A stretch of DNA of 39,654 nucleotides. Source: a virus. How positions within the stretch are numbered: the stretch's first letter is position 1; each line of letters begins with the position of its first letter. The notes below the pieces were generated by a model. That model was not told where the DNA came from. It ran no database searches and saw only the letters and a list, made by a program, of their open reading frames with translations. This document shows positions 1,397 through 39,654 of the stretch, one piece after another. The position numbers and the translations under genes are program-made. The stretch is from IMG/VR virus record IMGVR_UViG_3300046506_000191, one strand, 5' to 3'.

Positions 1397-1684
1397 ATGA
1401 AGACCCGCCGCGCCAGCCGCTACGTCACCGTCACCACCGACGTCGAGGTGGACATCGCTGACTACCTCACCGAGTCCGACAACGACGAGCTGAGCGAGCT
1501 CGGGCTGCACCGCGCGGACAGCTGTGCGGGAGACCCGCACGGCGCCGCCAGCGAGCTGCACAGCGCGCTCAACGCGCTGCACCAGCAGGCACACCCGGAC
1601 CAGTCGCTGTTTGTCGACATGTGCTTGCGCGAGCCGTGCCGCTCGCTGTTGCTGCAGAAGTTTCCGCAGCTCGGCAACTGCTGA
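1397..1684 (+). CDS. Hypothetical acidic protein (95 aa)
   Basis: ATG preceded by GGGAGA. High GC3. Bracketed by the two 56-bp repeats. Confidence 0.65.
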   Translation: MKTRRASRYVTVTTDVEVDIADYLTESDNDELSELGLHRADSCAGDPHGAASELHSALNALHQQAHPDQSLFVDMCLREPCRSLLLQKFPQLGNC

Positions 1685-1691
1685 CGCCCTG

Positions 1692-1747
1692 CCCCCAGCA
1701 CCGCCCGCCACCGCGCGCCCCGCACCGCGGCGGCGGGCGGGCAAACC
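1692..1747 (+). repeat. 56-bp exact direct repeat, copy 2 (contains the same stem-loop at 1701-1740)
   Basis: Identical to 1327-1382. Confidence 0.95.
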
Positions 1748-1776
1748 CCAGCCACCGACCCGAGGAGCGCTCCCCC

Positions 1777-4233
1777 TTGAGCACCGCACCGGTCCGCGAC
1801 ACGCCACTCGACGGCGCCCTGTGGCTCACCAGCCGCGGCTTCGCCGTCTTCCCCGTGGACCACCCCGGGCTGCAGCGGTGCGCCGGCATCGGCCAGGGCC
1901 ACGACCCCGCCACCTGTACCCAGCGCGGTAAGCACCCCGCCGTGGCGTTCACCCGCAGCCACGCCCGCACCGAGCAGCAGGCAGTCGCCCTGTTCGGCGG
2001 GCAGCTCCGCAACGTGGGCGTCGCCGTCGGCGCCTGCCGCGGCCCGGGCGGCGAGCAGCTGCTCGTCGTCGACTCCGATCGGCCCGGCGCCATCGAAGAC
2101 ACCGCCGCCCGCCTCGGCCACGCGCACACCCCGACCATGCGCGTCCACACCGCCAAGGGCCACCACGACTACTACTGGGCACCGGCGGACGCCCCCCTCG
2201 GCAACGGCCTCGGCATCCTCCGCGGACAGTTCGACGGCGACGTCCGCGCCGGAAATGCCTACGTCATCGGCCCCGGCTCCGTCCACGCCACCGGCGTCAT
2301 CTACGAGCTGGACGACCCCGAGCAGGCGCCCGTCCCGGCGCCCGCCTGGCTGCTCACCGCGCTGCAGACCAAGCCCGCAACCGCACCCGTCGCGCCGCCC
2401 AGCAACGTGATCGCGCTGCCCGCCGACCGGTATGACGCCTACACCCGCAAAGCCGTACAGGCCGAATGCGACGCCATCGCGCACGCAACGGACGGTGACC
2501 AGAACAACCAGATCAACACCAGCGCGTTCAGCATCGGCACCCTCGTCGGCGCTGGCGCGCTCACCGAAGGCGAAGCCCGGCAGACGCTGCTCGCCGCCGC
2601 CCGTGCAGGCAACCACCCTGACGGGCGGGCCCTGCCCACCATCAACTCCGGGCTCACCGCAGGCATGGCCCACCCCCGCACCCCGTGGCCCCCGGTCTCC
2701 CGCGACCGCTTCACCCTGCTCCTCCCCCAGCAGCCCACCGCCCCGGCCGCGCCTGCGGCGAGCACTCCCGCGTGGACCGCGCCCGTCGAGACGCCGATCG
2801 TCCTGCCCTCCCCGATGCCCGCCCGCGAATGGGACGACCTCGGCAACGCCGAACGCATCATCGACCGCTACGGCAGCGAGATCCGGTGGCTCGCCGACAT
2901 CGAACGCTGGGCGTACTACGACAAGGGCCGCTGGACCCTGAAGGCAGCCAACACCGGCGTGTGGACCCGCGCCGTCGACACCATCAACCAGCTCGAGGAC
3001 GAGGCCCCCAACTACAGCGACGAGACGCCACAGCCCGACCCCGGCAGCAAAGCGCAGGCGCCGGCCGCCAGCGAGCAGGAGAAGTTCCGCGCCTGGGGCC
3101 GCAAGCAGCGCATGCGGCCCAAGCTCGCCGCCGCCCGCGACGTCCTCCAGGCCTACCCCGTCGTCCACTCCGCCATGGACGCCTTCGATCAGCCGGAGAC
3201 GCTCCTCAACGTCACCAACGGCATCGTCGACCTCGCCACCGGTGACCTCCGCGCCCACGACCGCGGCCTCTACCTCATGCAGCAGTCACCCATCTGCTAC
3301 GACCCGACCGCCACCTGCCCCACGTGGGACAAGTTCCTCGCAGGCGTCATGCCCGACCCTGAGCGCCGCGCCTACCTCGCCCGCGTCGTCGGCTACAGCC
3401 TCACCGCCTGCACCGGCGAGCAGGTCATGTTCATCCACCACGGCGAAGGACAGAACGGCAAAGGCGTGTTCATGCGCGTCGTCATGGGCCTGCTCGGCGA
3501 TTACGCCCAGGCCGTGCCCGCCTCCACCCTCATGGCCAAGCACGGCGACGGCGGCATCCCCAACGACGTTGCCCGCATGGTCGGCAAGCGCCTCCTGTCT
3601 ACCTCCGAGACTGGACGCACCGCCGAAGGCCGAGGCAAGCCGCTCGACGAGGAACTCGTCAAGCGGCTCACCGGTGAAGACCCGGTGTCCGCCCGGTTCC
3701 TGAACGCCGAGTTCTTCGAGTTCAAGCCCGTCGGAAAGATCCACCTCGCGACGAACCACCTGCCCGACGTGTCCGGCAGTCACAGCATGGCCCGCCGCCT
3801 CCAAGACATTGGCTGGGACGTCATCGTGCCCCCTGCCAAGCGGATCCAGGGCCTGGCCGAACAGATCCTCGCCCGCGAAGCGGCAGGCGTCCTCAACTGG
3901 GCCATCCGCGGCTGCCTCGACTGGCAGCAGCGCGGCCTCGCCGTGCCCGACTCCGTCACCGCGAAGACCCGCGAGCACATCGCCCAGTCCAATCCCCTCG
4001 CGACGTGGCTGGAAGAGGAGACCGACGAGGTCGCTGACGCCGTCACCGAGAACGGCCAGCTGTACGGCAGGTACAAGGCGTGGGCCGAACGCGCGGGCGT
4101 TCGGCACCCCATGTCGATGAAGGCGTTCACGATCCGCCTGCAGGAGCAGGGGTTCCAGCAGGACAAGGACTCCCGCACCCGCCGGGCTGTCACTCGCGGC
4201 CTCGCGCTCGCCCTCCTTGGCGGCGCCCAGTGA
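1777..4233 (+). CDS. Bifunctional primase-polymerase (Prim-Pol) fused to a D5/P4-type SF3 helicase NTPase
   Basis: The N-terminal part (GFAVFPV, LLVVDSD, HTAKGHHDYYW, VIGPGSVH) matches the AEP prim-pol pattern. The C-terminal part carries Walker A HHGEGQNGKGV and a P4-family primase C-terminal region. TTG 1777 lies 9 nt after GAGGAG; the start is uncertain. Confidence 0.85.
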   Translation: MSTAPVRDTPLDGALWLTSRGFAVFPVDHPGLQRCAGIGQGHDPATCTQRGKHPAVAFTRSHARTEQQAVALFGGQLRNVGVAVGACRGPGGEQLLVVDSDRPGAIEDTAARLGHAHTPTMRVHTAKGHHDYYWAPADAPLGNGLGILRGQFDGDVRAGNAYVIGPGSVHATGVIYELDDPEQAPVPAPAWLLTALQTKPATAPVAPPSNVIALPADRYDAYTRKAVQAECDAIAHATDGDQNNQINTSAFSIGTLVGAGALTEGEARQTLLAAARAGNHPDGRALPTINSGLTAGMAHPRTPWPPVSRDRFTLLLPQQPTAPAAPAASTPAWTAPVETPIVLPSPMPAREWDDLGNAERIIDRYGSEIRWLADIERWAYYDKGRWTLKAANTGVWTRAVDTINQLEDEAPNYSDETPQPDPGSKAQAPAASEQEKFRAWGRKQRMRPKLAAARDVLQAYPVVHSAMDAFDQPETLLNVTNGIVDLATGDLRAHDRGLYLMQQSPICYDPTATCPTWDKFLAGVMPDPERRAYLARVVGYSLTACTGEQVMFIHHGEGQNGKGVFMRVVMGLLGDYAQAVPASTLMAKHGDGGIPNDVARMVGKRLLSTSETGRTAEGRGKPLDEELVKRLTGEDPVSARFLNAEFFEFKPVGKIHLATNHLPDVSGSHSMARRLQDIGWDVIVPPAKRIQGLAEQILAREAAGVLNWAIRGCLDWQQRGLAVPDSVTAKTREHIAQSNPLATWLEEETDEVADAVTENGQLYGRYKAWAERAGVRHPMSMKAFTIRLQEQGFQQDKDSRTRRAVTRGLALALLGGAQ

Positions 4234-6054: not shown

Positions 6055-6545
6055 TGCCCGCCGCCCGTGTCTTCACCCGCGACCAGCTCGACACCCTCGG
6101 CCTGCCGCACGACCTGGCCACCGAGGAGAACGCCGCCGAGTTTCCCGAGGCCGCCGTGGAACTGCACCGCGAGCAGGTCGACACCCGCCGCTGGGTGTCC
6201 GTCCACGAGCTGGTGTTCCGCGCCCCCGACGACGGCAAGACGTATGCCGTCACCTACGAGCAGGGCCTCACGGAGCTCCAGGAGGACACCGACCCGTGGG
6301 ACTACGCCAAAGAGATCAGGGCCCTTGAGGTTGAAGCGCGCGCCGTCGTAATCACGGAATGGCACTCCGTGGCAAGCAAGGCCGCCGATCGGCCCGCCGC
6401 CCTGACCACCGCCGAGCGGCAGTTCCTCACCTACGCCCTGGACCTCGCCGCGGACCAGATGGCCTCACGCGGCAACGAGTTCGGTGACGAGGACACCGCG
6501 GCGCTGGAGAAGCTGCGCCGCATGGCCGACGAGCAGCCGTCGTGA
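6054..6545 (+). CDS. Hypothetical acidic protein (163 aa)
   Basis: ATG 6 nt after AAGGAG. High GC3. Confidence 0.7.
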   Translation: MPAARVFTRDQLDTLGLPHDLATEENAAEFPEAAVELHREQVDTRRWVSVHELVFRAPDDGKTYAVTYEQGLTELQEDTDPWDYAKEIRALEVEARAVVITEWHSVASKAADRPAALTTAERQFLTYALDLAADQMASRGNEFGDEDTAALEKLRRMADEQPS

Positions 6546-7935: not shown

Positions 7936-8265
7936 ATGTCTGACATCACGTGGCACCGACCGGAATACCAAGGGAAGGACGACCAGCTCGTCAGCCTCGC
8001 CAGCGTCGCCACGCTCGCCGGAGTCACCCGGGCCGCCGTCTCGAACTGGCGCCGCCGGCACGACTTCCCCAAGCCCGTCATGACCGCCGGCCGCACCGTC
8101 TGGGTCGTGCGGGCGGAGGCCGAGGCGTGGCTCGCCACGCGTCCGGCCCGGACCGCCAAGGACACCGACGCCCAGCTCGCCGCGCTGGAGGCCCGCGAGG
8201 CCCGCCAGACCGCCGCGTTGGCCATCACCCGCAAGAAGCTCCGCCAGCTCCACCAGCACCCCTGA
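7936..8265 (+). CDS. Helix-turn-helix DNA-binding protein (excisionase/MerR-like HTH_17 type)
   Basis: ATG after GAGGAG. LVSLASVATLAGVTRAAVSNWRRRHDFPKPV is a typical excisionase-family HTH. Confidence 0.7.
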   Translation: MSDITWHRPEYQGKDDQLVSLASVATLAGVTRAAVSNWRRRHDFPKPVMTAGRTVWVVRAEAEAWLATRPARTAKDTDAQLAALEAREARQTAALAITRKKLRQLHQHP

Positions 8266-10486: not shown

Positions 10487-10696
10487 GTGAACCGAGAAGA
10501 GCGCCTGACCATGGCCAATACGGCGATGGACAAGGCCACCCAGCTCGCCCGCGACGCCGAATTCCACGCCCGCAGCCACGAATCCCGCCAGAGGACGCAG
10601 CCCCTCGCCGCCGCCGGCGCCCTGTGGGTGGACATCGCCCGCGCCCACGCCGACATCGCCCGCCTGCTGCCCGAGACGGAGGACACCGATGTCTGA
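10487..10696 (+). CDS. Hypothetical small protein (69 aa)
   Basis: GTG after GAGGAGAG. ATG 10511 is an alternative start. Confidence 0.5.
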   Translation: MNREERLTMANTAMDKATQLARDAEFHARSHESRQRTQPLAAAGALWVDIARAHADIARLLPETEDTDV

Positions 10697-10859
10697 GCCG
10701 AAGGTGAAGCTCACGCTCTGGGAGAAGGCCCGCATCGTCGCCATCGAGGCACACGGCGTGAAGCGTGCCGCCGCCGGTATCGAGAACCAGCCCGACATCG
10801 ACAAGCGCGTCGAGCGCGTCCGTGAGCAGGCCCGCAAGAGGGCCGCGCGCGGCAAGTAG
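10689..10859 (+). CDS. Hypothetical basic small protein (56 aa)
   Basis: ATG 4 nt after ACGGAGGA. Overlaps the upstream stop. Hand-translated as MSEPKVKLTLWEKARIVAIEAHGVKR... Confidence 0.45.
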   Translation: MSEPKVKLTLWEKARIVAIEAHGVKRAAAGIENQPDIDKRVERVREQARKRAARGK

Positions 10860-10945: not shown

Positions 10946-13048
10946 ATGACCGACATCCTGATCAAGCCGCTACAGGACGCCCACCAGGACGCCGAGGACG
11001 CCACCCCGGACGCGCAGGACGCCGTCACCGAAGTCGAGGCGGTCGACCGCCCCGACAACCCCCTCGCCGACTGGCTCACCGTCCCCGACGCCCCGATCCT
11101 GCCCGCCTGGGCCCGCAACTGGGCATCCGTCCGCGCCAACAGCGGCGCCTTCGCCAAGGTCACCTGGTGGCACACCCGCTACCACGGCCTCCGCAGCCCC
11201 AAGTACGCCGTGAAGATCGCCGGATACTCGACGCGCGGCGCCTTCCGGGGCGGGCGCCGCCTGTGGCCCGTCCTCGCCGCCCAGGACCACACCCGCGCCG
11301 TCAAAGCCCTCGCCGCCCAGTCCAAGGCCAAGCCCGAGGACGAGGCGCTCGCCCTGCGCTACCAGGTCGCCCACCGCGACCGCACCCTCGCCCGCCGCTG
11401 GCGCTGGGGTGCCGCCCTCGGCCTGGCGTCCGCCGCGTCCGTCTCCCTCAACTACGCCAGCCTCGGCCTGCAGCTCGCCGCCAGCTGCATGATGTGCGGC
11501 GGCCTCTCCGCAATCGGCTGGTCCGACGAGGCGCAGATCCTCGACCACGGCACCCCGCCCCTGCGGATCGCCATGGACTCCCAGCAGCTCAACGACGCCC
11601 TGCGCGCCACCAGCCTGCTCAAGCAGGGCAAGGGCGACGACGAAGGGCCCAAGGTCAACTGTGTGATGGGGCCGCTCCGCGACGGGAACGGCTGGGCGGT
11701 CGTCTTCGACCTGCCCCGGGGCGGCGGGAAGACCGCGGCCGATGTCCTCGCCAAGCGGACCGCGATCGCGGCCGAGCTCGGCGTCGACGAGATCCAGGTC
11801 ATCATGAGCCGCGTCCGCGCAGCCCACGGCGGCAACGCGGGCCGCGTGTCCATGTGGGTCGCCGACGACGACCCCTACCTCGCCCCGCCCACGACCTCGC
11901 CGCTGGAAGCCCTGGACACCTTCTCCATCTGGGACCCGGTGCCCTTCGGCCAGGACGCCCGCGGCAACCGCGTCTCCATCCCCATCGTGTGGCAGTCCAT
12001 GTTCTTCGGCGGCCTGCCCCGGCGCGGCAAGACGTTCAGCCAGCGTCTCCTGACCGCCGCCGGCCTCCTGGACGCCTACGTGCGGCACTACGTCGCCGAC
12101 TTCAAGGGCGGCCAGGACTGGATCCAGATGCGGCAGGTCGCCCACCGGCTCGTCCTCGGCGCCGAAGAAGACGCCATCGAAGCCTTCAAGACCATGCTCA
12201 AGGAACTCCTGGCCGAGATGGAACGCCGCTTCGCCGTCCTGCGCGGCCTGCCCACCTCGATCTGCCCCGAGGGCAAGCTCACCCCCGAGATCGTCAAGCG
12301 CTACAACATGCCGTTCATCCTGTTCACCGTCGACGAGCTGCAGGAAGCGTTCCTCGCCGTCGACGACCAGGAGCGCGAAGAGATCATCAACGACATGGCG
12401 CGCATCGCCCGGCGCGGCCCCGCCGCCGGTTTCGTCTCCAACTACGCCTCGCAGCGCCCCGACGCCAAGTCCGTGCCCACCAAGCTCCGCGAGATCATCA
12501 CCATCCGCTACTCCACCCAGGTCACCGACCAGACCAGTTCCGACATGGTCCTCGGCAAGGGCAAGGCCGCCCAGGGCGCCGACGCGTCCGTCCTGTCCGA
12601 AGACCACCTCGGCGTCGGTGTCCTCGTCACCGGCCCCGCCTCCTTCGTCACCGTCAAGGCCGACAAGCTGGAGACCGCCGCCTTCAACTCCATGTGCTCC
12701 AAGGGCCGCACCCTGCGCGAGCAGGCCGGACAGCTCACCGGCGAGGCCGCCAACGACCCCAGCGCGATCGCCGAGGCATCCGGCGTCACCGTCAGCCCCG
12801 TCTTGTCCGACTGCCTCGCCGTCATGCGGCACAGCGTGAAGATGCACACCGTCGACCTGCTCGCCCGTCTGGAGAACCTCGACGAGGACTATGGCGACTG
12901 GGACGCCGAACGCCTCGCCAAGGAGCTGGACGACGCCGGCGTGAAGCGCACCACCAAGCAGGTCAACATCGGCGGCAAGAACCTCGCCGGATACCGCCGC
13001 GAGGACCTCGAAGCCGCCATGCCCGCCGAGCTCCTCAACGCCCGGTAG
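10946..13048 (+). CDS. FtsK/SpoIIIE-family dsDNA translocase, TraB-like (N-terminal TM region, P-loop motor, C-terminal wHTH-like tail)
   Basis: Hydrophobic segments lie around aa 160-200. Walker A is GGLPRRGKTF and Walker B is ILFTVDELQE. The size and layout match actinomycete plasmid TraB and phage FtsK-like proteins. Confidence 0.8.
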   Translation: MTDILIKPLQDAHQDAEDATPDAQDAVTEVEAVDRPDNPLADWLTVPDAPILPAWARNWASVRANSGAFAKVTWWHTRYHGLRSPKYAVKIAGYSTRGAFRGGRRLWPVLAAQDHTRAVKALAAQSKAKPEDEALALRYQVAHRDRTLARRWRWGAALGLASAASVSLNYASLGLQLAASCMMCGGLSAIGWSDEAQILDHGTPPLRIAMDSQQLNDALRATSLLKQGKGDDEGPKVNCVMGPLRDGNGWAVVFDLPRGGGKTAADVLAKRTAIAAELGVDEIQVIMSRVRAAHGGNAGRVSMWVADDDPYLAPPTTSPLEALDTFSIWDPVPFGQDARGNRVSIPIVWQSMFFGGLPRRGKTFSQRLLTAAGLLDAYVRHYVADFKGGQDWIQMRQVAHRLVLGAEEDAIEAFKTMLKELLAEMERRFAVLRGLPTSICPEGKLTPEIVKRYNMPFILFTVDELQEAFLAVDDQEREEIINDMARIARRGPAAGFVSNYASQRPDAKSVPTKLREIITIRYSTQVTDQTSSDMVLGKGKAAQGADASVLSEDHLGVGVLVTGPASFVTVKADKLETAAFNSMCSKGRTLREQAGQLTGEAANDPSAIAEASGVTVSPVLSDCLAVMRHSVKMHTVDLLARLENLDEDYGDWDAERLAKELDDAGVKRTTKQVNIGGKNLAGYRREDLEAAMPAELLNAR

Positions 13049-13191
13049 AGGGGGGAGGGCACTACAACCCCCGCTACGAGACCCCCTCTTGGCCACCCCT
13101 ACCCGGCGAGTGGATCTAGAGGGGGGCCTCTACGGCCATAGACCCCCCAGTAGAGGCCCCCGACCTGCAAAGTAGTGGGGATAGAGGGGGG
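13045..13191. repeat. Cluster of (G)TAGAGG(G/C)4 repeats downstream of the translocase gene (clt-like or operator-like)
   Basis: Copies start at 13046, 13117, 13151 and 13182. An inverted copy CCTCTAC lies at 13128-13134. Degenerate copies are GTAGTGGGG (13172) and CCCCCTCTT (13082). Confidence 0.6.
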
Positions 13192-13237
13192 TACGGGGCC
13201 ACCCTCCAACAGCCCCTCCAGAGGGCATCATGGAGGC

Positions 13238-13417
13238 ATGCAGCAAACCGTCCTCGTCGACGCCTACGCCGCCCACGCAGCCACCGGCATACAGCCCGGC
13301 ACCATCCGCGTCTGGCTTCACCGCGGCAAGCTCACCCACCACGGCCACGACCGCCAAGGGCGCGCCCTCGTCGACCTCAACGAACTCGCCGAGAAGGCAA
13401 ACGGTCAAGCAGCTTGA
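13238..13417 (+). CDS. Small helix-turn-helix DNA-binding protein (MerR/excisionase-like, 59 aa)
   Basis: ATG after GGAGGC. ATGIQPGTIRVWLHRGKL ... GRALVDLNEL. Confidence 0.6.
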   Translation: MQQTVLVDAYAAHAATGIQPGTIRVWLHRGKLTHHGHDRQGRALVDLNELAEKANGQAA

Positions 13418-13487
13418 CCAACGCCCTGACCTGCTGTAACACTCAAGCCACGTTCACTGTGTCCTCAACCGACACCACAGACGCACG

Positions 13488-13521
13488 CGAAGCCCCGGCG
13501 GCCATGAGCCCCGGGGCTTCG
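13488..13521 (+). terminator. Stem-loop terminator after the HTH gene
   Basis: CGAAGCCCCGG pairs with CCGGGGCTTCG: 11 perfect bp around a 12-nt loop. Confidence 0.55.
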
Positions 13522-14572: not shown

Positions 14573-15010
14573 GTGCTGATCGTCGTCACCGGCCCGCCGG
14601 CCGCAGGCAAGTCGAGCTGGATTAAGGCGCACGCCAAGGCCAACGACATCGTCATCGACCTCGACCTGATGGCGCTGGCCATGGCCGGGCCCGGAGCTGA
14701 CCACCACGCCCACGGTGAGGTGCTGACCAAGGTGGTGCACCGCGCCCGCTACGCAGCCATCGACGAGGCGTGCCAGCACCTCGACAAGGTCGACGTGTAC
14801 GTCATCCACACACAGCCCAGCGCGAAGGCGCGAGCGAAGTACAAGAGGCTCGACGCGCGCATCGTGACCGTGGACCCAGGCAGGGACATCGTCATGCAGA
14901 GGGTCAAGGCCATGCGACAGCCCGAGATGGAACGGGTCGTCACCCGGTGGTACAACGCCCGGCGCGGCCAGGCCCGGGGCGCGATGCCGCAGGCGTCACG
15001 AGTGTGGTGA
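14573..15010 (+). CDS. P-loop NTPase/kinase-like protein (145 aa)
   Basis: Walker A at the N-terminus: LIVVTGPPAAGKSSW. Small single-domain size, like AAA_33/zeta-type kinases. Confidence 0.7.
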   Translation: MLIVVTGPPAAGKSSWIKAHAKANDIVIDLDLMALAMAGPGADHHAHGEVLTKVVHRARYAAIDEACQHLDKVDVYVIHTQPSAKARAKYKRLDARIVTVDPGRDIVMQRVKAMRQPEMERVVTRWYNARRGQARGAMPQASRVW

Positions 15011-15208: not shown

Positions 15209-15481
15209 ATGAGCGTCGCCGATGAGATCACCGCTGAGCTTGACGATCTTCACGCCGCTGAGACGTCGCCCGGCATGGCGGCCGTCGCCCTCGACCTGGC
15301 GAAGGCCATCGACGGCGCGGACGCCCCGACCGCGAAGGCGGTCGCCGCCCGCGAGCTCCGCTCGATCATGTCCGACCTCCGCAAGCTCGCCCCTGTCGGG
15401 GAGAAGGGGGACACGGTCGATGACATTGCTGAGCAGCGAGCAAAGCGCCGCGCCGCCGCCCGAGAGCAGGCCAGCGGCTGA
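15209..15481 (+). CDS. Terminase small subunit (candidate)
   Basis: Position immediately upstream of and overlapping the large terminase gene. 90 aa, helical, basic C-terminus AEQRAKRRAAAREQ. Confidence 0.55.
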   Translation: MSVADEITAELDDLHAAETSPGMAAVALDLAKAIDGADAPTAKAVAARELRSIMSDLRKLAPVGEKGDTVDDIAEQRAKRRAAAREQASG

Positions 15482-16943
15482 CGGGCCCCTGTACGGCTGG
15501 CAGGAGCCACCGATCCAGACCGCGCCGCCGTCGGTGTCGAGCGCGGGCCAGGAGGCCATCGACCTCGCCGCGCGTGCTGGCCTGACGCTCGACCCGTGGC
15601 AGCAGCACGTGCTGCGCATCGGCATGGGCGAGAAGCCCGACGGCTCATGGGCAGCCTTCGAGGCTGCGGTCAACGTCCCGCGCCAAAACGGCAAGGGCGG
15701 GATCATCGAGGCCCGCGAGCTCTGGGGCCTTTTCATCGGCGGCGAGGAACTGATCCTCCACTCGGCGCACGAGTTTAAGACTGCCAAGAACGCGTTCAAG
15801 CGGATCGAGCGCCTGATCCGTGGGTGCCCTGACCTGCACAAACGCGTCAAGGCGTACAGGTACACGGTCGGTGAGGAATCGATCGAGCTGCACACCGGTC
15901 AGATCCTGCGGTTCATCGCCCGCTCGAAAGGCTCCGGCCGCGGCTTCACCGGCCACTGCAACATCCTCGACGAGGACATGATCCTCGGAGACGAAGCGAT
16001 GGACGCCCTGCTGCCGACGATGGCCGCAGTGGAGAACCCGCAGATCTGGTACCTCGGATCGGCGGGCATCGGTGCGCTGTCCGTGCAGCTGGGCCGTTTG
16101 CGGCGCCGGGCTCTGGCCGCGATCGAGGCCGGCGTCCCGGATCCGTCGCTGGCCTACTTCGAGTGGTCCGCCAACCTGCATGTCGCCGAGTGCGGGCAGG
16201 GCTGTACCGAGCATGACGACGCGGCCTCCGACGAGACGGTCCTGAAGGCCAACCCGGCCGTGGGGTACCGGCTGACGCTGGAGAAGGTGGCCAACGAGCG
16301 GTCAACGCTGAGCGCGGTCGGCTATGCCCGTGAGCGGCTCGGTGAGGGCGACTACCCGTCGGACACCGAGGACACGTGGCAGGTCATCGGTGAGGACGCC
16401 TGGCGGGCGCTGGCGGCCGCAGAGTCGCAGCCCTCGGATCCGGTGGCGTTCGCCATCGACATGACGCCCGAGCGCTCACATGCGGCCATCGCGGTGGCCG
16501 GGGCCTGGCGGGGCGGAACGCACGTCGAGGTGGTCGACCACCGGCCCGGTACGGGCTGGATCCTGGACCGCGCCGAGGAGCTGCACAAGAAGTGGAAGCC
16601 GCGGTGCTGGGTCGTCGACGCGGGCGGCCCTGCCGGATCGCTCATCCCTGACCTGCAAGAGCGCCTCGGCATCGAGGTGGTGCAGCCGAAGATGCGCGAA
16701 GTGGCGCAGTCCTGCGGCCAGTTCTACGACGCAGTGACCGAGCAGACCCTCTCCCACCTCGACCAGGCGCCGCTGACGGCCGCTCTGGCGGGCGCGCAGA
16801 AGCGTCCGCTGGGCGACGCCTGGGCGTGGGCCCGGCGCATCGTCTCCGTGGACATCAGCCCGCTGGTAGCGGTGACGAACGCCAAGTGGGGGCTGGGCGC
16901 CGAGGTCGAGGAAGACACTGACCCGCTCGACAACATCTGGTGA
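15420..16943 (+). CDS. Terminase large subunit
   Basis: LDPWQQHVL ... VPRQNGKGGI (P-loop-like) ... CNILDEDM (Walker B), followed by a nuclease-half region. ATG 15420 follows GAGAAGGGGG; the start is uncertain. Confidence 0.85.
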   Translation: MTLLSSEQSAAPPPESRPAADGPLYGWQEPPIQTAPPSVSSAGQEAIDLAARAGLTLDPWQQHVLRIGMGEKPDGSWAAFEAAVNVPRQNGKGGIIEARELWGLFIGGEELILHSAHEFKTAKNAFKRIERLIRGCPDLHKRVKAYRYTVGEESIELHTGQILRFIARSKGSGRGFTGHCNILDEDMILGDEAMDALLPTMAAVENPQIWYLGSAGIGALSVQLGRLRRRALAAIEAGVPDPSLAYFEWSANLHVAECGQGCTEHDDAASDETVLKANPAVGYRLTLEKVANERSTLSAVGYARERLGEGDYPSDTEDTWQVIGEDAWRALAAAESQPSDPVAFAIDMTPERSHAAIAVAGAWRGGTHVEVVDHRPGTGWILDRAEELHKKWKPRCWVVDAGGPAGSLIPDLQERLGIEVVQPKMREVAQSCGQFYDAVTEQTLSHLDQAPLTAALAGAQKRPLGDAWAWARRIVSVDISPLVAVTNAKWGLGAEVEEDTDPLDNIW

Positions 16944-35470: not shown

Positions 35471-37042
35471 TTACTGGACGAGTGCGGGTTCGTCCTCCCA
35501 CACGGGGATCACGCGTGCCGCAGCCTGATAGCGGGATGGGCGGGGCAGCACCCACACGTACCGCATCAGCTGCCGCAGCAGCAGGTTCTTCGTCACGACG
35601 GTGAGGAGGTTCGGCTCCTCCCACTGGGCAAGCAGGTCAGCCGCCAGCGGCTGGAAGTCGGCCGCGGTCCGCACCGGCTTCTCCTCTTCGCACTGCGCCA
35701 GCTCGGCCAGCACCTGCTTGCGGTCGGCTTCCAACCGCCTCACAGCCTGGTCGTAGGCGTCGGCCGGATACCGGTCGGGATTGAGGGCGTAGTCCATGGT
35801 GAGCCTGCCCAGCGCATCGGAGAGACGCGCGGACTCGGTGGAGAGACGCGCCCGCTGCACCCCCGGGTCGGGGCCGGCCGACCGCGGCGCGGAAATGGTG
35901 GCGGGGGCCGCGTCCACACCGGCCGCCACCTCCCGAATGAAGGGCAGCACAACCTCGGCTAGCAGCCAGCCGCCGGGGGCCGCGGTGCCTGGGCATGGCA
36001 CGCCGCCCGCCCGGCGCGAGCACCGCCAGTCCGCATCCCGGCCGCCACCGCGCCGTTTCGCACTCATCGAGTGATTGCAGTAACAGCAGCGCACCAGGCC
36101 GGTGAGCTCATAGGTGGCATGGCGCGCTCGAGGTGGCTGGCTGCGGACCAGGGAACGCCGCTCCCGGTACGCCTCCCACAGCTGTGTGGGATCGGCGTCG
36201 ATGCCGTACCCGATGATCGGCAGATGCGCACCGTCGGTATACCGCCAGTGCCCGCAGCTCTTAAAGCCGCGACCTTCGGCCTTGGGGCAATCGCAGTCGT
36301 CGCGGACGCGCAGCATCCCGGCCGGGAACCCGGAGTCCATGTAGCGCAGGAGGCTGTCGTAGCCCCACGGGCCGCCGCGCGTGGTCTGGTGGCCGACGGC
36401 GTTGAGCTGCTGGGCGAGGGCGACCATGCCGGTGCCGCCGAGGTACTGGGCGTAGAGGGATGCGACGAGGGGCGCCAGCTCGGGGTGCGGCTCGTACAAC
36501 TCCTGCTGGGTGCTGTATCCCGTAGGCGAGGCCGGGTCGGGGATGCGGCGTGGGTGCCAGATGTAGCCGAAACGGGGGCGGCCGGCGGATGGCACGCCCT
36601 GAGCGATGCGGTGCTTGTGGGTTTCCTGCCACTGCTCGCCGATGCGCCGCGACTCGAACTCCGCGATGCCGAACTGCACATGGCGACTCAGGCGGCCGAC
36701 GGCGGTGGTTGCGTCGATCCGCTCCGTCGCCGACTCCAGCGTGCCGCCCGCTTGTTCGAGGCGACGCAGGTTGATCTGGATGCCGTAGTCGTCGCGGCCG
36801 AACCGGCTGTACTTCCAGACGGCGATCCCTCTGGCCTCGCGGCGCTCGACGCGCTGGATCGCACCCATGATCTTCCGCTTGAAATGCCGTCCGGACACAT
36901 CCAGGTCCTCCACCCAGTCGATGACTTGACGGCCTGTCTGCTGCGCCCATGTGGTGATCGCAGCACGCTGGATCTCCGGGCTGATCTTCTCCTCGCGCCA
37001 GGTACTGACGCGGACGTATCCGATGAACGGCTCTGTGCTCAT
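35471..37042 (-). CDS. int: Large serine recombinase (phage integrase)
   Basis: The N-terminus IGYVRVSTWREE carries the catalytic Ser motif. Also present: the resolvase domain ...VWKYSRFGRD, a recombinase domain, and zinc-ribbon Cys pairs (CDCP...C, CCYC...C). Confidence 0.9.
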   Translation of the reverse strand: MSTEPFIGYVRVSTWREEKISPEIQRAAITTWAQQTGRQVIDWVEDLDVSGRHFKRKIMGAIQRVERREARGIAVWKYSRFGRDDYGIQINLRRLEQAGGTLESATERIDATTAVGRLSRHVQFGIAEFESRRIGEQWQETHKHRIAQGVPSAGRPRFGYIWHPRRIPDPASPTGYSTQQELYEPHPELAPLVASLYAQYLGGTGMVALAQQLNAVGHQTTRGGPWGYDSLLRYMDSGFPAGMLRVRDDCDCPKAEGRGFKSCGHWRYTDGAHLPIIGYGIDADPTQLWEAYRERRSLVRSQPPRARHATYELTGLVRCCYCNHSMSAKRRGGGRDADWRCSRRAGGVPCPGTAAPGGWLLAEVVLPFIREVAAGVDAAPATISAPRSAGPDPGVQRARLSTESARLSDALGRLTMDYALNPDRYPADAYDQAVRRLEADRKQVLAELAQCEEEKPVRTAADFQPLAADLLAQWEEPNLLTVVTKNLLLRQLMRYVWVLPRPSRYQAAARVIPVWEDEPALVQ

Positions 37043-37440: not shown

Positions 37441-37833
37441 CTAGCTGGTGTTCGCCCCCCCTGCGAGGGCGCTGATCATGGTGAGTACTGCCTGCTGGTG
37501 AGCTGGATTGGTGACACCCAACGCCTCGAGGGCCTCACGCTGAGTGATGCTCCGGTCCCCCCGGGCCGGTAGCTCCTCTGGGTCGATGTAGCCGCACATG
37601 GCGAGCATGGGTGCGATAGGAAGACCCAGGCGTCGTGCGACTTGTTCGATGGCGTTGGTGTTGGGGCGTTCGATGCCGCGAAGCCACCGGCCGAGGGCTT
37701 GGGGGCTGACGCCTGCGTCGTGTGCGAATCGTGCGCGGCCTCCGCCTCTGGGCCCGAGATCGTAGCCCCTCGCCTGAAGTTCTTTGGTCAGCCATGCGCC
37801 GAAGCGCTGGGCGTCCGTCGGGTGTGTAGACAT
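37441..37833 (-). CDS. Phage repressor-like XRE/HTH protein
   Basis: FAHDAGVSPQALGRWLRGIERPNTNAIEQVARRLG. Divergent from the cro-like gene across a 303-bp operator region. Confidence 0.75.
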   Translation of the reverse strand: MSTHPTDAQRFGAWLTKELQARGYDLGPRGGGRARFAHDAGVSPQALGRWLRGIERPNTNAIEQVARRLGLPIAPMLAMCGYIDPEELPARGDRSITQREALEALGVTNPAHQQAVLTMISALAGGANTS

Positions 37834-37843
37834 GTCGCCGAGG

Positions 37844-37859
37844 CTATCGCGTGCGATAG
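37844..37859. promoter_or_regulatory. Operator-like palindrome CTATCGC-GT-GCGATAG (half-site repeated at 37874-37882)
   Basis: Read directly from the sequence. Lies 11 nt upstream of the repressor start codon. Confidence 0.45.
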
Positions 37860-38055
37860 GTCGGTAGAAGTAGCTATCGCGTCATGGAGCCCCCCGTGGG
37901 CCAGTTGGCATATCCCGGGAAAATGGTCTCCGCACACTATCCCCGGCCTGTTCGACGCCGCAAGCCATACCGCACACGGCATTTCGCGCAAAAATTCGAA
38001 CACTGAGGCGCCTCACCAAACGCTGCGTAATCGCACGGCCTTCACCCTCTCTTTT

Positions 38056-38114
38056 ATCTACCTCACCCGGTAGATAGTGGTAGCGTCTACCTACTGCGGC
38101 AGGTAGCTACCTGC
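38056..38114. promoter_or_regulatory. Array of GGTAG/CTACC palindromic operators upstream of the cro-like gene
   Basis: ATCTACC-N6-GGTAGAT (38056-38075), GGTAG-CGT-CTACC (38079-38091), GCAGGTAGCTACCTGC (38099-38114). Confidence 0.5.
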
Positions 38115-38136
38115 CGAACAAGAGAGGTATGCCTAA

Positions 38137-38361
38137 GTGAGGTACGACCGAACAGCACTACAGAGAGCCGCCGCAGCCGCCGGCCAACCCAACAGCTGGC
38201 AGATGTCGGCCAAGCTCGGCATCGGCACGATGACCGGCTGGCGCCTGTGGCACGGCCACGGAGCACCCAGCGTCCACACCGCCGCCCGCGTCGAGCTCAT
38301 CTACGGCCTGCCCATGGCCGCGCTGCTCAAGCCGCTCGCTCGTGTCAAGGCATCAATGTGA
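38137..38361 (+). CDS. Cro-like helix-turn-helix protein (74 aa)
   Basis: GTG after AGAGAGG. WQMSAKLGIGTMTGWRLWHG. Confidence 0.6.
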   Translation: MRYDRTALQRAAAAAGQPNSWQMSAKLGIGTMTGWRLWHGHGAPSVHTAARVELIYGLPMAALLKPLARVKASM

Positions 38362-39374: not shown

Positions 39375-39654
39375 ATGGCCCGCACCAGTGGTTCCGACGA
39401 GACCGGCGAGGCCCTCGCCGAGCGCATCGCCGCGCTCATCGTGGACACCGCCCTCAACGCCCCCCGCTCCCTTCAGAAGCGGCTCGGCCCGTCCGAGGTC
39501 GGCGATCCCTGCGAGCGGCGCCTCTCGTACAAGGAGTTGGACTGGCCGCGCTCCGCCGCCGAGGGTGACCCGGCCGCCAGCATCATCGGCACCGGCTTCC
39601 ACACCTGGATGGAAGAAGCCTTCACCCGCCGCCAGACGGTGCTGCCCGACGGCC
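39375..39654 (+). CDS. Cas4/RecB-like PD-(D/E)XK nuclease, 5' part (runs off the window end; continues as 1..669)
   Basis: ATG 39375. MARTSGSDETGEALAERIAALIVDTALNAPRSLQKRLGPSEVGDPCERRLSYKELDWPR..., in frame with the ORF at 10..669 via the overlap. Confidence 0.8.
   Translation, partial: MARTSGSDETGEALAERIAALIVDTALNAPRSLQKRLGPSEVGDPCERRLSYKELDWPRSAAEGDPAASIIGTGFHTWMEEAFTRRQTVLPDG
39528..39654. repeat. Terminal overlap copy 2 (identical to 1-127)
   Basis: Exact 127-nt identity with the window start. Confidence 0.95.

Follow-up and report, generated by a model that had tools for sequence, protein, structure and literature searches.

A candidate clt-type recognition locus behind a TraB-like translocase gene in a temperate siphophage genome

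Introduction

Why should a phage carry a dense array of short repeats immediately behind a gene for a DNA pump? The question is raised by IMG/VR virus record IMGVR_UViG_3300046506_000191, a stretch of 39,654 nucleotides (the window) with a G+C content of about 70%. A 127-bp direct overlap joins the contig ends (1-127 = 39528-39654), so the window is a complete, circularly assembled genome of about 39.5 kb, that of a temperate siphophage. Since near-identical translocases are annotated in Streptomyces genomes, the host range is Streptomyces. The gene in question encodes a translocase of the FtsK/SpoIIIE type, and the array begins at its stop codon. A preliminary description, made from the letters of the window, had likened the array to clt, or else to an operator of the small helix-turn-helix (HTH) gene that follows.

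The clt regions of Streptomyces plasmids have 8-bp direct repeats that are recognized by the cognate TraB protein (PMC4447253). In plasmid pSVH1, TraB reads these TraB recognition sequences (TRS) via helix 3 of a C-terminal winged helix (PMC4447253, PMC3583192). In pWTY27, clt comprises 16 bp within traA and 159 bp beyond it, with 7-bp direct and inverted repeats that are footprinted by TraA (PMC3583192). Comparison of the window with its relatives leads us to the view that the array is probably a cis-acting recognition locus, equivalent to clt with its TRS-type repeats, for the TraB-like translocase encoded upstream. TraB together with clt is a known kind of element; the motif, the translocase subfamily and a box shared between lineages are the additions made here.

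The repeat array

The array fills positions 13044-13190, from the translocase stop codon on, and consists of about ten sites in mixed orientation (Table 1). An alignment of 17 lineages gives the site consensus G-T-A-G-(A 55%, C 20%, T 18%)-G-G-S-S, where S is G or C. The preliminary description had recognized four direct copies of TAGAGGGG. The copies are real, as those starting at 13046, 13117, 13151 and 13182 were all recovered by a scan for TAGAGGSSSS, but the motif is better given as GTAG(A/C/T)GGSS, with some ten copies. The inverted copy that it reported is also present (TAGAGGSSSS match at 13123-13132, minus strand), with its hexamer CCTCTA at 13127-13132 rather than at 13128-13134, and the palindrome to which it drew attention is formed by sites 5 and 6. 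Two degenerate copies fared differently: GTAGTGGGG at 13172 is a true and conserved site, whereas CCCCCTCTT at 13082 has no TA core and is not conserved as a site among the relatives. Overlooked had been ATAGACCCCCC, a weak direct copy at 13138-13148, and three inverted copies with a CTAC core (13062, 13074 and 13099).

The sites are strongly clustered in the genome-wide count that the preliminary description had called for. Five of the six TAGAGGSSSS matches in the window lie inside the array; shuffled sequences lead one to expect 0.9 matches, and no shuffle reached six. The shorter hexamer TAGAGG has five of its eight window copies there. A position weight matrix (PWM), trained on the other lineages only, with the window left out, and applied to both strands at a threshold of 9 bits, found 23 matches in the 39.6-kb window, of which eight fall within 160 bp at 13040-13200.

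In the window, eight sites are followed by a box (13160-13168) and then by the tandem pair GTAGTGGGG-ATAGAGGGG. The first site overlaps the stop codon. It is a true site and more than a stop codon, because it is kept in two relatives (L014 and L022; such handles denote the loci compared) whose gene ends earlier, at TGA.

The FtsK-orienting polar sequence (KOPS) GGGNAGGG and the SpoIIIE recognition sequence (SRS) GAGAAGGG are also G-rich 8-mers read by the C-terminal winged helix of an FtsK-family pump. They are dispersed genome-wide with strand polarity, whereas the window motif sits in one mixed-orientation cluster of about 150 bp. A KOPS- or SRS-type orienting sequence was rejected on this clustering of exact (5/6) and PWM (8/23) matches.

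Linkage of the array to the translocase gene

A scan of viral contigs for the translocase gave 23 loci with 66-98% protein identity, and the array lies directly 3′ of the stop codon in all 23. Alignment of the 17 non-redundant lineages places the sites at relative offsets 6+, 21-, 33-, 58-, 76+, 89-, 98+, 110+, 132+ and 141+. The invariant columns are the site cores and the sequence between sites drifts, while the order, orientation and spacing of the sites are nearly constant; the conservation in related genomes that the preliminary description had asked about is thus found. When the whole collection was scanned for the tandem pair, 27 matches were obtained. The 14 that lie in high-GC contigs all sit directly behind the translocase gene; the remaining 13, from low-GC contigs, show no repeat enrichment and are chance matches.

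The same picture emerges from species-representative genomes, among which 114 relatives were found, 80 kept, and 78 had enough sequence downstream. At least four PWM matches within 245 bp occur in 64 of these 78 genomic loci, where the background is about 0.2. Of the 14 low scorers, eight were read (L099, L100, L105, L110, L111, L114, L122 and L132), and every one of them has, at the same positions, an array of the variant GGTAA(A/G)GG. Apart from this concerted change from GTAG to GTAA, the motif is constant within the family of 66-100% identity.

The variant sublineage deserves a comment of its own. GGTAA(A/G)GG replaces GGTAGAGG at several sites in concert, the stop codon included (TAA for TAG). 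No amino-acid change in the C-terminal domain consistently tracks the variant.

The surroundings of the array are far less stable. The flanking genes are mosaic, and the next gene after the array differs, or sits on the opposite strand, in other loci. Between the phage and the two relatives L024 and L038, which resemble actinomycete integrative and conjugative elements (AICEs), only the translocase is well conserved, the primase-polymerase (prim-pol) being weakly so (28% identity). As judged from these alignments, the array is locked, physically and evolutionarily, to the gene of a TraB-homologous pump.

A layout common to conjugative plasmids

What follows traB in plasmids has a common plan: the stop codon, a lineage-specific repeat of 6-8 bp in mixed orientation, a CTGACCTGC box, and two tandem repeats. 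In the gap of about 230 bp behind traB of pSVH1, GACCCGGA is repeated six or more times, in either orientation; next comes CTCTGACCTGCGCAAAC, and then the tandem copies GTCCGGGCTCC and GTCCCGGTCTCC. GACCCGGA is reported to be the pSVH1 TRS (Vogelmann et al. 2011), and the observed pSVH1 sequence is consistent with this. The corresponding repeats are CCCGGAC (five copies) in pSG5, ACCCGGA (nine) in L029, CCCGGA and CCAGGTC in L028, GACACC (seven) in L026 and CCCGCTC (eight) in L027. In seven lineages, then, distinct motifs occupy the same position, and the motif goes with the translocase lineage. The box is specific to its position: of 31 genomic loci, 21 have a perfect CTGACCTGC at +90 to +170, compared with 61 copies in the remaining 1.36 Mb.

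The box itself is worth recording. It is found inside the post-traB arrays of plasmid, AICE and phage lineages that are otherwise unalignable (L025, L026-L029, L057, L024, L058 and L059), and it always precedes the last two tandem repeats. A second copy lies in the window at 13419-13435, just past the stop codon of the HTH gene; downstream of it is a GC-rich hairpin, at about 13489-13520. The same 17 nt, CCAACGCCCTGACCTGC, make up the box region in the clt of pSG5 (L025, about 8014-8030), and in the window GTGTCC and GACACC come next. This copy may have a regulatory role or be what remains of a second clt. As a candidate for the sps palindrome bound by SpdA2, the box was rejected, being unrelated in sequence and position.

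Given the linkage to the 3′ end of the gene, the TraB homology described below and the common layout, the cluster corresponds, in position and architecture, to a clt/TRS locus whose motif is new, and the comparative evidence favors the clt-like reading proposed earlier. The likeness to pSVH1 of S. venezuelae is close: an FtsK-like translocase, and an array that starts at the stop codon, fills the gap, uses both orientations and ends with the box and two tandem copies. The motif differs (GACCCGGA there, GTAG(A/C/T)GGSS here), as does the carrier, a 12.6-kb rolling-circle plasmid in one case and a 39.5-kb phage in the other. The window protein is only about 28% identical to pSG5 TraB, a close relative of the pSVH1 protein, and its C-terminal homology to TraB is not significant. 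By its published description, pWTY27 matches the array in size and position, its clt overlapping the 3′ end of a tra gene for a protein of about 690 aa and reaching about 160 bp past it; its motifs, TGACACC and CCCGCCC, are different, and it is a theta-type plasmid.

The translocase

The protein has a Walker A motif (356-GLPRRGKT) and a Walker B motif (459-LFTVDE). It matches the Pfam family PF01580 (FtsK_SpoIIIE) at 24.6 bits, against a cut-off of 24, and an FtsK/SpoIIIE-like PHROG with an E value of 5.8e-27; among proteins of solved structure, its best relatives are FtsK and the conjugative coupling protein TcpA. In tblastn it is 28% identical to pSG5 TraB over residues 6-597 (E 1e-44); with the Tra proteins that other Streptomyces plasmids encode, identity is 29-39%. 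TraB of pSVH1 was reached only by way of the relative L026 (26%) and not from the window protein. The subfamily is large, with 634 database proteins, and relatives occur in at least 114 species-level genomes, mostly in AICEs.

An AlphaFold2 model of the last 120 residues, built on an alignment of 30 sequences, has a predicted local distance difference test score of about 90 over residues 40-110. The order of its elements (helix, strand, helix, helix, beta hairpin) is that of a winged helix, made by the C-terminal 70 aa or so, and the top Foldseek matches are all winged-helix DNA-binding domains (Fur, SSV1 F-93, TubR and forkhead). A DNA-binding fold for the C-terminus is therefore plausible in the model. 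The sequence of the C-terminus itself attracted little: a search of the PDB returned nothing, and a homologue search with the C-terminal 110 aa gave six fragments only, with no added diversity.

Several observations weigh against a clt-type locus served by this protein. The NCBIfam equivalog model for plasmid_TraB (NF041214) gives it 17.9 bits against a cut-off of 800, which makes the translocase a distant subfamily and not a plasmid_TraB equivalog. None of the Foldseek matches to the C-terminal model is significant (best E 0.057), nor is a profile-profile comparison (hhalign) with the C-termini of pSG5-type TraB proteins (E 0.16), and Pfam finds in this region only a weak match to the C-terminus of DUF3631, of the RepAM initiator family (E 0.004). 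The predicted third helix is acidic (AERLAKELDD), so that the contact with DNA may go through the wing instead; the wing, VKRTTKQVNIGGKNLAGYRR, is basic and carries residues that are invariant in the family. The box is perfect in AICE and plasmid loci and degenerate in the phage lineage (CCGACCTGC, CTGAGCAGG, CTCACCTGC), where the locus could therefore be decaying. Domain searches of the window found neither a GntR-type kil-kor regulator nor a Spd protein recognizable by Pfam; both are present beside relatives of the translocase. Finally, megablast found no isolated, cultured phage with this translocase, and the one gene that tblastn of isolated phages brought up, in phage Gilgamesh, is FtsK-like with 26% identity.

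Other explanations of the array

The operator proposed as an alternative in the preliminary description would make the array a regulatory region for downstream genes, bound by the HTH protein of 13238-13417 or by another phage regulator and controlling the start of the late (HNH-terminase) region. The array does lie 48 bp upstream of the HTH gene, whose product matches MerR-like regulators and Cox-like excisionases, and BldC and Xis, relatives of this class of HTH protein, are able to bind direct repeats cooperatively. However, the array stays the same at loci with another gene behind it or with the next gene on the opposite strand, and a 13238-type HTH gene, counting two variants, follows it in only nine of the 78 genomic loci. 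With so few loci and such differing neighbors, an operator dedicated to the 13238 gene is excluded. A scan also found no sigma-70-type promoter, and the repeats that look like this phage's own operators, at 38055-38115, have a different motif. A regulatory role in the wider sense is unlikely. One candidate promoter, TGACC...TAGAGG, was looked at and set aside, as the scan did not find it and its second hexamer lacks the terminal T.

Could another protein of the module be the one that binds? The array would then be a centromere, a stability site or a spreading site for the DUF6257 protein or a Spd-like protein. The DUF6257 gene stands directly upstream of the translocase gene in the window and in several AICE relatives, and the small DNA-binding Spd proteins of Streptomyces plasmids have repeats of their own, as in the case of SpdA2 and sps (PMC4170104). 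Against this, sequence searches detect DUF6257 in a minority of loci only, while the array is universal; in pSVH1-type plasmids with the same layout, repeat recognition has been assigned to TraB (PMC4447253, PMC3583192); and the sps palindrome has no relation to the array in sequence or position. We consider this reading quite improbable.

A phage packaging signal (pac, or repeats for the small terminase subunit) or iterons of a replication origin would be a third possibility. The array is 2 kb upstream of the terminase genes, with the HNH gene between them, pac, cosB and origins typically have repeat arrays, and one relative (L059/L060) combines the module with a pair of terminase genes. Yet the same array is found in elements that have no terminase or capsid genes (L024, L058 and most of the 78 loci), and window and L024 have nearly identical arrays in spite of the divergence of their prim-pol proteins. 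The layout is moreover common to the rolling-circle plasmids pSVH1 and pSG5, neither of which has a packaging site or an origin at that position. So many carriers without terminase, and replication proteins so divergent, make both a packaging site and an origin very unlikely.

That the array is a low-complexity G/C run arisen by chance, or else a structured RNA or a terminator of transcription, as its G/C-richness and local palindromes (e.g., TAGAGGGGGGCCTCTA) might suggest, is hardly credible, since no shuffle matched the observed count, folding is about as stable as that of shuffles (z -0.85 as RNA, +0.17 as DNA), Rfam gives no match above chance, the palindromes show no consistent covariation between lineages, a scan finds no terminator on the plus strand, and the conservation data effectively refute it. 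A hairpin had been considered for apparent covariation in the central palindrome (GCTACCCCGGTAGC vs. TCTACCCCGGTAGA); its pairing is broken in other lineages, and it too failed on folding and Rfam.

Elements that carry the module

The clt-type reading is best placed among the elements in which relatives of the translocase reside. These are full prophages, AICE-like conjugative elements of 14-15 kb without phage genes, and an AICE that bears terminase genes. Related prophages are found, for example, in S. cupreus PSKA01 and Actinacidiphila glaucinigra NBC_01694. The genomic relatives stand in AICE conjugation modules with GntR, DUF6907, SpdB or DUF2637, DUF6257 and Tra. Modules of this kind, with integrase, GntR, Spd-type, DUF6257 and Prim-Pol/DUF3631 genes, also house the closest relatives of the window translocase (66-72% identity), and in this the window resembles AICEs such as pSAM2; it differs in adding a full virion and a lysis module. 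For the archetypal AICE, published work notes that no clt has been described (PMC9513070). Terminase, portal or capsid genes of the window type occur within 10 kb at about six of 78 genomic loci, and satellite-type terminases at six more. With phage genes at so few loci, the module is mainly an AICE module that was acquired by this phage lineage.

Three of these elements are of interest in their own right. The translocase is 69% identical to that of a circular 14.57-kb element of S. decoyicus; the 'plasmid unnamed1' of this species (L024; NZ_CP107886.1, 1-29140) is a head-to-tail dimer of this AICE-like element. Besides the translocase, the element has genes for GntR, DUF6251, DUF6257, prim-pol, a serine recombinase and a small sigma-like protein; phage structural genes are absent. 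In S. lunaelactis (L059 5543-20851 and L060), a 15-kb integrative element has GntR-Spd-DUF6257-Tra and Prim-Pol/DUF3631 together with small and large terminase genes; genes for capsid and tail are absent. The element has the look of an AICE that doubles as a phage-satellite-like element. In phage locus L009, an AT-rich stretch at about 6170-6330, some 1.1 kb downstream of the translocase and after another CTGACCTGC, has iteron-like repeats (GATCA and TTTGA(A/G)ATC). It could be an origin or a regulatory region in that phage.

Genome context

The DUF6257 gene adjoins the 5′ side of the translocase gene in the window, as it does in L024, L058 and L059/L060; by this comparison of gene order, DUF6257 is a recurring partner of the translocase in AICE-type elements. 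Upstream of it the window has three small or large open reading frames with hydrophobic or membrane segments, which may be Spd-like. Further genes and the sites of the array are collected in Table 1. The role of the 14573-15010 product is ambiguous, because it matches two different families.

Table 1. Sites of the array and genes of the window. The core column gives the position of the TAG core of each site, on the strand shown; bits are PWM scores.
Feature	Positions	Strand	Core	Remarks
Exonuclease	10-669
Prim-pol/D5 replication protein	1621-4233
RusA-like resolvase				listed between prim-pol and translocase
DUF6257 protein	10689-10859	+		small, basic, 56 aa; Pfam PF19771, E 5.7e-7
FtsK/SpoIIIE-type translocase	10946-13048	+		700 aa
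Site 1, GGTAGAGGGGG	13044-13054	+	13046	14.3 bits, top match of the window; overlaps the translocase TAG stop; kept in all lineages
Site 2, TGTAGTGCCCT	13056-13066	-	13062	10.2 bits; CTAC column invariant
Site 3, CGTAGCGGGGG	13068-13078	-	13074	10.2 bits; offset kept in relatives
Site 4, GGGTAGGGGTG	13093-13103	-	13099	weaker; in part of the family only
Site 5, TCTAGAGGGGG	13115-13125	+	13117	11.1 bits; offset kept
Site 6, CGTAGAGGCCC	13124-13134	-	13130	11.7 bits; palindrome with site 5
Site 7, CATAGACCCCC	13137-13147	+	13139	weak copy ATAGACCCCCC, degenerate in the window; relatives read GGTAGCGGGG or GGTAGAGG
Site 8, AGTAGAGGCCC	13149-13159	+	13151	11.9 bits
Box, CCGACCTGC	13160-13168	+		CTGACCTGC in most relatives, pSVH1, pSG5 and other plasmids
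Site 9, AGTAGTGGGGA	13171-13181	+	13173	9.9 bits; opens the tandem pair behind the box; conservation of the array is highest here
Site 10, GATAGAGGGGG	13180-13190	+	13182	10.9 bits; closes the tandem pair; invariant columns T, A, G, G, G, G
MerR/Xis-like HTH protein	13238-13417			59 aa; matches MerR-like regulators and Cox-like excisionases
HNH endonuclease				between array and terminase genes
DUF6221 protein				listed between HNH gene and 14573-15010
Terminase-small-subunit-like ATPase	14573-15010			PHROG 'terminase small subunit' E 6e-36; also AAA_33 kinase-type ATPases
Large terminase	15222-16943
Portal, major head protein, head-tail adaptor, minor tail protein, tape measure				listed after large terminase
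Endolysin				listed before serine integrase
Serine integrase	35471-37042	-
Repressor	37441-37833	-
Cro-like gene	38137-38361			divergent from repressor

A second set of repeats, at 38055-38115 (also 37844-37881), lies between the repressor and cro-like genes, and 38055-38115 holds six copies of GGTAG/CTACC within 60 bp. They form three inverted repeats with spacers of 6, 3 and 0 bp (ATCTACC-N6-GGTAGAT, GGTAG-CGT-CTACC and CAGGTAGCTACCTG). The palindrome CTATCGCGTGCGATAG and a half-site, CTATCGCG, are found nearby. These repeats are probably immunity operators. The cluster was rejected as an instance of the array motif, having no score with the GTAGAGGSS matrix and being absent from the AICE relative.

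Implications

By analogy with TraB and clt, hexamers of the translocase would use their C-terminal winged-helix domains to dock on the GTAG(A/C/T)GGSS repeats, load on the circular double-stranded element and pump it, driven by ATP, across a membrane or hyphal cross-wall. The destination would be a neighboring compartment or a recipient hypha, and the cargo here would be the complete genome of a temperate siphophage.

Whether the siphophage does move its own double-stranded DNA (dsDNA) genome between hyphal compartments or into recipients without virions, as a conjugative phage, is a more tentative proposition, which we think possible rather than probable. It includes the idea that phage, AICE and satellite could mobilize each other, since they share the same repeat specificity in the same genera. 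The literature searched contains no description of an AICE-type Tra/clt module in a complete integrating phage. As far as the cited accounts describe it, the nearest precedent for a phage with a conjugation module is the Streptomyces plasmid-phage pZL12, which has phage-particle genes and a tra gene that is needed for conjugal transfer (PMC3583192, PMC4487206). Going by those accounts, pZL12 is an autonomously replicating element of about 90 kb with ParAB, whereas the window is an integrating siphophage of 39.5 kb whose Tra module is of the AICE type.

In closing, a likely recognition motif, GTAG(A/C/T)GGSS, can now be given for a large subfamily of TraB proteins. That clt-type loci of unrelated specificity have one layout and a CTGACCTGC box provides a simple computational rule for finding clt loci. 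The presence of a functional-looking conjugation module in a complete phage genome turns the spread of a phage through the mycelium, or between strains, as naked dsDNA into a testable question. It also raises the question of whether phages, AICEs and satellites might exchange mobilization services.

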